In this document: piece after piece, positions 30,239-38,080 of the stretch
Layout of the letters: each line of letters opens with the position of its first letter
Position numbering within the stretch: the first letter of the stretch is position 1
Origin: Escherichia coli
Lineage (GTDB): Bacteria; Pseudomonadota; Gammaproteobacteria; Enterobacterales; Enterobacteriaceae
Direction: 5' to 3' (one strand)
Length of the DNA stretch: 64,000 nucleotides
Assembly: GCF_003018255.1 (NCBI RefSeq)
Contig: NZ_CP027440.1
The notes under the pieces: generated by a model
Seen by the model: the letters and a program-made list of their open reading frames with translations, nothing else
What the model was told of the DNA's origin: nothing
Database searches by the model: none
Program-made: the position numbers and the translations under genes

Positions 30239-30276
30239 AGCTGCGGATATAACATTCTGAACCGCAGCTATTTGTG
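30239..30276 (+). terminator. hairpin terminator candidate after yeiS
   Basis: 8-bp stem AGCTGCGG/CCGCAGCT followed by T-rich tract. Confidence 0.45.
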
Positions 30277-30335
30277 AATCCTTTCACAGTTTAAATTTCC
30301 CCACGCGCATAGCCTTAATATCAGCACGCAATATT

Positions 30336-35650: not shown

Positions 35651-36649
35651 TTATTTCTTGCTGAATTCAGCCAGGTTGTCTTTATCTACGCCAACATAAG
35701 GTACGCGGACCACTTTGTTGTCGATTTTCCAGTTGGTGCCATCAGCCGCACCTTTGCCATCGGCCAGGTTTTTCGCCAGATCAAAGGTCGCTTTCGCCTG
35801 GTTGTTAGCATCGTTCAGTACGGTGCCCGCCAGTGCACCGGATTTCACCAGCGCCAGCGCTTCTGGCAGCGCATCGACGCCAAACACCGGAATGCTGGAC
35901 TTGTTGTGTGCTTTCAGTGCTTCTACCGCGCCCATTGCCATCGCATCGTTGTTGGCGATAACCACTTCGATTTTGTTGGCGTTCGGGCCAGACAGCCAGG
36001 CGTCCATCTTATCTTTCGCCTGAGCGGTATCCCACATAGCGGTATCTAACTGTAACTGTTCAGTTTTGATGCCTTTGTCGTTCAATTCTTTAATCACGTA
36101 AGTGGTACGTGCTTCTGCATCCGGATGGCCCGGCTCACCTTTCAGCAGTACGAACTGAATCTGACCGTCTTTGTTCAGATCCCAACCCTGATTCGCCGCC
36201 CAGTGTTTAGCAATCAAATCGCCCTGAATAATGCCGGACTCTTTGGAGTCAGTGCCAACGTAGTAGGCTTTGTCGTAGCTATCCAGCGCCTTACGAGACG
36301 GTTCTTTGTTGAAGAAAACCACCGGCACGTTTTGCCCACGCGCTTTCTCAATCACCGTACCCGCAGCTGCCGGGTCAACCAGGTTGATTGCCAGTGCCTT
36401 CACCCCTTTCGCCAGCAATACGTCGATCTGATCGTTCTGCTTGGACTGGTCATTCTGAGAATCATTCATCAGCAGCTGAACATCTGGCGCGGCTTTCGCA
36501 TCTTGCTCAATAGCCTTGCGCACCACAGACATAAAGTTATCGTCGTACTTATAGATTGTTACACCAATGCGAGTATCAGCAGCGTGTGCAGCGGCACCGA
36601 ATAACATGCTGGCCATCACAGCAGACAGGGTTAACACCTTCTTATTCAT
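35651..36649 (-). CDS. mglB: periplasmic D-galactose/D-glucose-binding protein MglB
   Basis: 332-aa ORF with signal peptide ([12 protein letters not shown]). Confidence 0.95.
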
Positions 36650-36900
36650 GGTATCTCCGGTTTTTCTTATGCAGGGTAGTGCTTGAGATAAATGCTCGGC
36701 GGGGCAGTAGAGTTAATGAAGTGTTACTGAACGCCGAAGCTCACTTTTTAAAATTCGTTCTTCCATGCCCGGTAACGCTCCAGAAAACGGCTTTAATTGT
36801 TGTTATGACGCTATTACCTCGGTGAAAGTGATTATTCACTGTTACATACGGGTTACAACGTTAAAACGGTGCAATCATAGCTATCACATTGTTAAGATAC

Positions 36901-36916
36901 TGTGAAATCACTCACA
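36901..36916. promoter_or_regulatory. consensus CRP box upstream of mglB
   Basis: TGTGA-AATCAC-TCACA, perfect TGTGA-N6-TCACA, about 250 bp upstream of mglB ATG. Confidence 0.5.
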
Positions 36917-36918
36917 GA

Positions 36919-36934
36919 TTGAAAGCGGTTACAT
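36919..36934. promoter_or_regulatory. GalR/GalS-type operator-like sequence adjacent to CRP box, overlapping galS stop codon
   Basis: TTGAAAGCGGTTACAT matches the gal operator pattern (GTGnAAnCGnTTnCAC) at about 13 of 16 positions. Confidence 0.4.
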
Positions 36935-37969
36935 CGCCAGATTTGTTGAGTTAGTGATCGCCGCCGCATTCTGGCGCGTTGCGACAGAATGGCGACGCAC
37001 TAACGTCGGCATAAAACAGTGGCTGGCACGCGGATCAATATTGCCTGCTGCCCCCTGCAAGGCCAGTTCGGTGGCTAATTTAGCCATTGAAGCAATGGGA
37101 TAACGCACAGTCGTTAATTGCGGGTCGGTGTAACGGGCGATGGGAATATCATCGAAACCGATGATGGAGAGATGTAACGGAATCGCAATGCCATTATCTT
37201 TTAATGCTGTCAGTGCGCCAGCGGCCATATTGTCGTTATAAGCAAATACAGCGGTAAGTTGTAGATTGCGCCCCAGCAGTTCAACCATCGCCGCCTCACC
37301 GCCCGGCATGTCCGGCGTACCTGTGCCAATCCAGCTTTCCGGCGGAATAATATCCTGCTCTTTCAACGCACTCATCCAGCCTGCTTTACGCATGGCGTCA
37401 TCTTCAATGCCGTGACTGGAAGAAAGATAACCAATACGTTGATGACCGTTATTCAGCAACATGCGCGTCGCCATTCGGGCACCGCTGAGATTATCCAGGC
37501 AAACGCAACGATGGGCGTACCCCGGCACAACGCGGTTGATTAACACCATACCAGGAATGTTATCCATAAATTGTGCCAGTTCATCATCACTCAATGCTTT
37601 TGAGTGAACAATCAACGCATTACACCGCTGGCGAATTAACACCTCAATGGCGTGACGCTCTTTTTCCGCTTCATGATAGCTATTGCCTATTAGCACGTAT
37701 TTCTGATGCTGCTGGGCGACCAAATCCACCGCTTTTACCAGCGCACCAAAAAACGCATCAGAAACGTCCATCACCACCACGCCAATGGTATCGCTAACCT
37801 GAGTTGCCAGCGCCTGGGCATTGGCGTTTGGCCGATAATCCAGCTCACTCACGGCTTTCATTACTGCTTCACGCGTGTCGGCACTGACCAGCGTGCTGTT
37901 ATTGAGCACCCGGGAAACCGTTGCCACAGAGACGCCAGCCTGACGCGCTACATCACGAATGGTGATCAT
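36929..37969 (-). CDS. galS: LacI-family repressor GalS
   Basis: 346-aa ORF from ATG 37969 ([27 protein letters not shown]); track GTG 37975 rejected. Confidence 0.92.
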
Positions 37970-38045
37970 ATTCACTACCTGTTATGAGATTGCAGTAAAT
38001 GACTGCTTGCTGGCGGCTATTTTGTCAGCACTGAATACAGGACTT

Positions 38046-38061
38046 CGTGAATCGAGTCACA
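38046..38061 (-). promoter_or_regulatory. CRP-like site in galS promoter
   Basis: minus strand reads TGTGA-CTCGAT-TCACG. Confidence 0.45.
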
Positions 38062-38064
38062 GCA

Positions 38065-38080
38065 ATGGAAACGGTTACAG
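38065..38080 (-). promoter_or_regulatory. GalR/GalS operator-like site in galS promoter
   Basis: minus strand reads CTGTAACCGTTTCCAT, about 12 of 16 matches to GTGTAAACGATTCCAC. Confidence 0.5.

Follow-up and report, generated by a model that had tools for sequence, protein, structure and literature searches.

The CRP box and the operator-like site at the 3' end of galS very probably belong to the established promoter of the mglBAC operon, which carries GalS/GalR and CRP sites and is followed by a leader of about 218 nt that includes a target of Spot 42. Earlier publications already cover the promoter with its CRP and GalS/GalR sites, the long 5' UTR and the regulation by Spot 42. The E. coli promoter, mglBp, was reportedly described by Hogg et al. 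in 1991 and by Weickert and Adhya in 1993, and these are said to be the descriptions used in EcoCyc and RegulonDB. Our sequence represents the same locus, with the same operator known from GalR ChIP-chip, the same CRP site known from Reg-Seq and the same positions of adaptive mutation. It differs from the K-12 reference in its origin, since the window (by which we mean the whole stretch of DNA analysed, 64,000 nucleotides of the E. coli contig NZ_CP027440.1) is from a non-K-12 strain and is 100% identical to strain JNE23-011, and every base that was mapped fits the K-12 coordinates. The mglBAC genes provide the main glucose-scavenging route under limitation, and in chemostats few targets of adaptive mutation are hit as repeatably as the mgl operator.

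The 801 bases round the site are 100% identical to E. coli chromosomes, and among 5,426 complete genomes of this species 5,425 carry them. The galS-mglBAC region is found on the minus strand of the chromosome, in the order galS, mglB, and then mglA and mglC. Gene names were transferred to window coordinates from an E. coli record of 100% identity, as annotated in RefSeq, and combined with the list of open reading frames. By this procedure galS (36929..37969, minus strand) encodes the HTH-type regulator GalS, the gal isorepressor, and terminates with a TAA at 36931..36929. Downstream of it mglB (35651..36649, minus strand) encodes the periplasmic galactose/glucose-binding protein, and its start codon ATG is located at 36649..36647.

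Read on the minus strand, the junction has the sequence ...GCG ATG TAA CCGCTTTCAATC TGTGAGTGATTTCACA GTATC..., in which both regulatory sites can be recognised. A CRP site is a 22-bp site with the core TGTGA-N6-TCACA, and this core is present with perfect half-sites in TGTGAGTGATTTCACA at 36901..36916. Perfect boxes of this kind occur twice in the 64 kb window, compared to 0.06 expected from shuffled sequences. The gal operator has been defined as a 16-bp hyphenated dyad, GTGNAANC.GNTTNCAC, with critical positions 3, 5, 9 and 15 (PMC5110547). The 16-mer ATGTAACCGCTTTCAA at 36919..36934 (minus strand) has G3, A5, G9 and A15 and is off consensus only at positions 1 and 16. The window holds just two matches to TGTAANCGNTTNCA without mismatch, the core TGTAACCGCTTTCA of this 16-mer and one at the galS promoter; like the perfect CRP box, the operator core is rarer than chance would predict. 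The centres of the operator and the CRP box are 18 bp apart. A preliminary description of this locus had reported a perfect CRP consensus and an adjacent gal-operator-like 16-mer, both overlapping the galS stop codon at about 250 bp upstream of the mglB ATG. The presence of both sites is confirmed, and the distance was right as well, with the CRP box 252-267 nt and the operator 270-285 nt from the ATG at 36649. The overlap holds for the operator, which contains the galS TAA, but not for the CRP box, which starts 13 bp downstream of the stop codon. A search of 36650-36900 that allowed up to two mismatches for CRP and up to one for the operator gave no further site of either kind, and therefore the sequence does not contain what the preliminary description had named as the evidence against it, a promoter near the ATG with CRP and operator sites of its own.

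Published experiments tie both sites to mglBAC expression. GalR ChIP-chip assigned the site TTGAAAGCGGTTACA at 2240625 to mglB (PMC5110547), and by coordinates and base identity this site maps to 36919-36933 of the window, plus strand. Under glucose limitation in chemostats, the adaptive mutation with the greatest success was a C to A change at U00096.2 position 2,238,647, with a neighbouring mutation at 2,238,648 and a later one at 2,238,630 that was said to fall in the CRP activator site (PMC7863352). In an earlier study the C to A change appears as a transversion from G to T within the repressor site, at a distance of 3 bp from where mglD (galS) ends (PMC2763269). Using an offset of 2,201,721 from U00096.2 to the window, with the mapping checked by base identity, the three positions 2,238,647, 2,238,648 and 2,238,630 were placed at 36926 and 36927 in the operator and at 36909 in the CRP box. 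On the plus strand these positions read C, G and C, in agreement with the papers, and 36926 is the third base past the TAA. The recurrent adaptive mutations that derepress mglBAC are thus located in the operator and in the CRP box (PMC7863352, PMC2763269). Reg-Seq has shown footprints of CRP and RNA polymerase at mglBp (PMC13228646), and the mglB CRP site was a confirmed positive control in that work. In addition, the mglB input function climbs monotonically with cAMP (PMC2516365). The ChIP-chip binding, the derepressing mutations in both sites and the Reg-Seq footprints bear out the supposition, made in the preliminary description, that these are the functional control sites of mglBAC.

To follow the sites across the Enterobacteriaceae we compared 80 loci, one genome per species from about 30 genera, with MglB at 92-100% identity. 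Identity is given here as the mean match to the E. coli base over the 79 other sequences, and the third codon positions of mglB, at 0.627, served as the neutral baseline. The operator and the CRP box were kept in 80/80 loci, always 18 bp apart. The highest identity was found in the -10 hexamer described below (0.996) and in the ribosome-binding region (0.984), followed by the operator (0.957) and the CRP 16-mer (0.887), of which the half-sites are invariant in 80/80 loci and the spacer is variable, compared to 0.708 for the leader as a whole. The CRP box was found 237-268 nt from the ATG in 79/80 loci, which indicates that the length of the leader has been retained. The one exception is Citrobacter amalonaticus S646, where the two sites are 462 and 480 nt from the ATG because the mglB leader contains about 196 bp of inserted sequence (approximately 1750-1950 of locus L024). 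In a distant BLAST match this insertion was 77% similar to an unannotated intergenic stretch present in 441 E. coli genomes. It may be an ERIC-type repeat; no inverted repeats were found within it.

The promoter itself was read from the sequence. A hexamer TATGAT is located at 36879..36874 (minus strand), and from its position together with the CRP geometry we infer a transcription start within 36865..36870 (minus strand), with G36867 as the best guess. With +1 at G36867, the hexamer would occupy -12 to -7, the CRP box would be centred at -41.5, the class II position, and the operator at -59.5. The promoter appears to have a good -10 in TATGAT and to be without a usable -35. It would be served by sigma-70 RNA polymerase activated in a class II manner by cAMP-CRP bound to the perfect box at about -41.5. 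GalS, and more weakly GalR, would bind the 16-bp operator at about -59.5, which abuts the CRP site; in the absence of galactose the bound repressor would block CRP-dependent initiation, and galactose would release it. With transcription starting near 36867 and translation at 36649, the 5' untranslated leader of mglB is predicted to be about 218 nt in length (36650..36867, minus strand). A longer 5' UTR of about 250 bp has been given for mglB (PMC3119520), and both values are in keeping with the leader of about 200 nt that the preliminary description had anticipated.

An alternative is that the main mglB promoter is found inside the apparent leader and that the real leader is shorter, in which case the upstream pair of CRP box and operator would act at a distance or serve something else. 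We consider this very unlikely. The candidate is a latent promoter-like site, TTGTAA-16-AATAAT at 36858..36831 (minus strand), or else a PhoB-dependent promoter. The promoter-like site scored 9 of 12 in a promoter scan and its -10 is one base from consensus, but the scan was no richer than shuffled sequences (1 site found versus 0.8 expected), and the hexamer TTGTAA is not conserved in other genera, most of which have CTGAAA. In Reg-Seq, a mutation at +30 of mglBp created a consensus -10 and a new start (PMC13228646). The hexamer AATAAT at 36836..36831 becomes TATAAT by a change of A36836 to T, and this base is at +30 to +32 if +1 is at 36865-36867, so that the Reg-Seq mutation fits a start at 36865-36867. 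The same result speaks against the internal promoter, because a point mutation was required to activate this -10 and the outcome was treated as a new start. The upstream -10, on the other hand, is almost invariant among the genera and is correctly spaced from the CRP box.

The case for PhoB is based on a direct repeat resembling a PhoB box, TGTAACCCGTATGTAACA, in the leader DNA at 36840..36857 (minus strand, +11..+28), whose sequence is exactly that of the motif given for mglB by PhoB ChIP-seq (PMC10294691). Its second unit, ATGTAAC, is nearly invariant across genera, and the first is CTGAAAC in most of them. Deletion of phoB lowered sigma-70 occupancy upstream of mglB more than 2-fold, but the mglB RNA changed little in the deletion, 1,076 versus 772 (PMC10294691). 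The PhoB ChIP site and the latent -10 may leave room for a minor second start within the leader, besides the main one near 36867.

Given its length, the leader might instead be a structured cis-regulatory RNA, such as a riboswitch, an attenuator or a leader peptide, sensing a metabolite or translation. The retention of length in 79/80 loci and the presence of near-invariant blocks amid a variable background would suit such an element, as would a palindrome and candidate small hairpin, AGUGAAUAAUCACU, at 36826..36839 (minus strand, +29..+42), in which 89.6% of the alignment cells are paired, with a few compensatory changes; this hairpin was picked by eye, and its covariation and its shuffle control were weak. 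A second hairpin picked by eye, in the CUUCGG region, had only 70.8% of cells paired. Against a structured RNA, an Rfam scan of 36400-37100 gave no match at an E-value of 1, and the energy of the single-sequence leader fold was not better than that of shuffled sequences (z = -0.40). RNAalifold on 78 distinct leaders returned only 3 invariant pairs, at -1.1 kcal/mol, and no consensus structure. Thus neither a conserved fold with covariation nor a known RNA family was found in the leader. As for a leader peptide, the start codon of a 17-codon upstream ORF at 36766 is ACG in most genera instead of ATG, and a 32-codon ORF starting with GTG was without support. The insertion of about 196 bp is, moreover, tolerated in the leader of one species. 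We regard a structured regulatory RNA as extremely unlikely. Under the preferred reading, the leader would act through short conserved linear sites and not as a folded riboregulator.

The clearest of these linear sites is a probable target of Spot 42 close to the start codon. The block ACUACCCUGCAUAA at 36667..36680 (minus strand) has an identity of 0.951, with CCCU invariant, and it is nearly invariant in the 78 leaders. Its core UACCCUGC (36678..36671), located 22-29 nt upstream of the mglB ATG, forms 8 contiguous pairs with nucleotides 1-8 of Spot 42, a single-stranded region of this RNA, at -13.3 kcal/mol. Immediately downstream is the ribosome-binding region with the mglB ATG, AAAAACCGGAGAUACC at 36647..36664 (minus strand), in which GGAG is found at 36658..36655. 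The Spot 42 sequence that we used as a query was 100% identical over 109 nt to E. coli genomes, where it is annotated as spot 42 RNA. The pairing energy of the seed is unexceptional by itself, since it was matched by 31/300 shuffles, and the weight for a Spot 42 target is on conservation and published work, not on pairing energy. Salmonella arizonae carries UACCCUAC at this block, which is a perfect Watson-Crick complement.

According to Holmqvist et al. (PMC5207318), Spot 42 and Hfq repress mglB post-transcriptionally in Salmonella, as demonstrated by disruptive and compensatory mutations, and a conserved Spot 42 site is found in the mglB 5' UTR downstream of an Hfq peak. The site validated in Salmonella is probably the block at 36671-36678. 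In E. coli, overexpression of spf resulted in a 2.69-fold drop of mglB, and mglB is accepted as a Spot 42 target (PMC8534726). The idea that the leader is open to post-transcriptional control is therefore well founded, with proof in Salmonella (PMC5207318) and by inference in E. coli (PMC8534726).

Spot 42 is itself repressed by CRP and, with Hfq, represses mglB. Combined with the activation of the promoter by CRP, this would constitute a feed-forward loop that tightens catabolite control. Other targets of Spot 42 (spf) in CRP feed-forward loops, for example galK, srlA and nanC, were reportedly described by Beisel and Storz in 2011. In common with them, mglB is a CRP-activated sugar-uptake mRNA in which the 5' single-stranded seed pairs near the ribosome-binding site. 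It differs from them in that the leader is long and has the site at its very 3' end, with about 170 nt upstream. Pairings of regions II and III of Spot 42 with 36752-36793 were also considered and were not clearly above shuffled sequences (15/300 and 66/300), and the duplex of full-length Spot 42 with the leader gave unrealistic pairing throughout and was discarded.

The first approximately 170 nt of the leader hold other conserved motifs, and these are the sole residue of our analysis that goes beyond known biology. The motifs CUGGAGCGUUACC and (A/C)CGGAAGA at 36757..36782 (minus strand), both containing GGA, are near-invariant in about 30 genera; mean identity for the first, at 36770-36782, was 0.916, and GGAAG is nearly invariant. 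Another motif, CAGUAAC, at 36723..36729 (minus strand), had a mean identity of 0.953. The GGA motifs of CUGGAGCGUUACC and CGGAAGA are 16 nt apart and by eye resemble CsrA-type sites. Just 5' of the ribosome-binding site there is a stretch, 36658-36732, that is rich in C and poor in G (C 33-35% and G 12-13% in 60-nt windows, a C/G ratio of 2.5-3.0), a composition compatible with a Rho loading site. The chemostat papers mention that rho mutations sweep alongside the mgl operator mutations.

It is possible, but on the whole doubtful, that CUGGAGCGUUACC, CGGAAGA, CAGUAAC, the palindrome at +29..+42 and the C-rich stretch are sites for further regulators of mglB not yet described. Such a regulator could be CsrA, bound to the GGA motifs, or another small RNA; Rho-dependent attenuation linked to Spot 42 is a further candidate. 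If this were true, the extra leader sites together with the PhoB site could explain the upkeep of a leader of about 200 nt.

The comparison between genera also bears on the position of the sites at the end of galS. A galS stop codon within the operator is peculiar to Escherichia (6 loci, ending in ...ITNSTNLAM*); in 73/80 loci the gene stops 12-15 bp short of the operator, with ...ITN* or ...ITNS*. In Escherichia the frame reads on to the TAA within the operator, so that the coding sequence for a short C-terminal extension of GalS, STNLAM, reaches into the mgl operator. Since the operator is still kept in the 73 loci where galS stops upstream, coding constraint is not the explanation for its conservation. 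That the matches at the galS end have arisen by chance or reflect a function of the galS 3' end, in termination or coding, has a practically negligible probability: the operator does overlap the stop codon in E. coli and a weak terminator-like hairpin was called on the opposite strand at 36925-36937, but a perfect CRP box is far too rare to be expected by chance, ChIP and adaptive mutations tie the site to mglBAC expression, and the idea is refuted by published mutations in the operator and the CRP site, which raise this expression. In Escherichia albertii NBRC 107761 (locus L004, approximately 650-1720) the galS frame is open over only the 280 codons that precede the stop codon, and for the N-terminal, DNA-binding part the frame is lost and stops are numerous; the mgl operator and the CRP box are intact. 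Judged from its reading frame, galS of this strain looks like a pseudogene.

The galS promoter further upstream has a similar pair of CRP and operator sites, as the preliminary description had noted. The pair is located at 38046..38080 (minus strand), with the operator CTGTAACCGTTTCCAT at 38080..38065 and the CRP-like box TGTGACTCGATTCACG at 38061..38046, which has one mismatch (TCACG). The GalR ChIP-chip site at this promoter is ATGGAAACGGTTACA (PMC5110547), and the known CRP site of galSp was recovered by Reg-Seq. Within the galS coding sequence there is an internal operator, GGGAAACCGTTGCCAC at 37912..37927 (plus strand), which is an exact match to a published GalR ChIP-chip site (PMC5110547), and therefore galS has an upstream and internal pair of operators like galE and unlike mglB. 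As in mglBp, the operator of galSp is 5' of the CRP box, with a similar spacing between centres (19 bp versus 18 bp at mgl), and the -10 is placed for class II activation. In contrast to mglBp, galSp has a mismatch in the CRP box, an extended -10 (TGACAAAAT at 38027..38019), the internal operator and a short leader, which by reading of the sequence would be about 40 nt.

The P1 promoter of galETKM has the operator OE at -60.5 and a CRP site at -41.5. A position 'around -60' has been given for OE of gal (PMC2516365). This promoter and mglBp thus share the same regulators and nearly the same upstream positions of operator and CRP site. Unlike mgl, galETKM is served by a pair of overlapping promoters, and with its second operator, OI, GalR and HU can form a DNA loop; our operator search of the window found no second operator within looping distance at mgl.

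The second of the two perfect CRP boxes of the window is TGTGAATCCTTTCACA, at 30273-30288 in the intergenic region between yeiS and preT. It is 218-233 bp upstream of the preT start (30506 in the window, by coordinate mapping), so that here the ATG is distant from the box, as it is at mglB.
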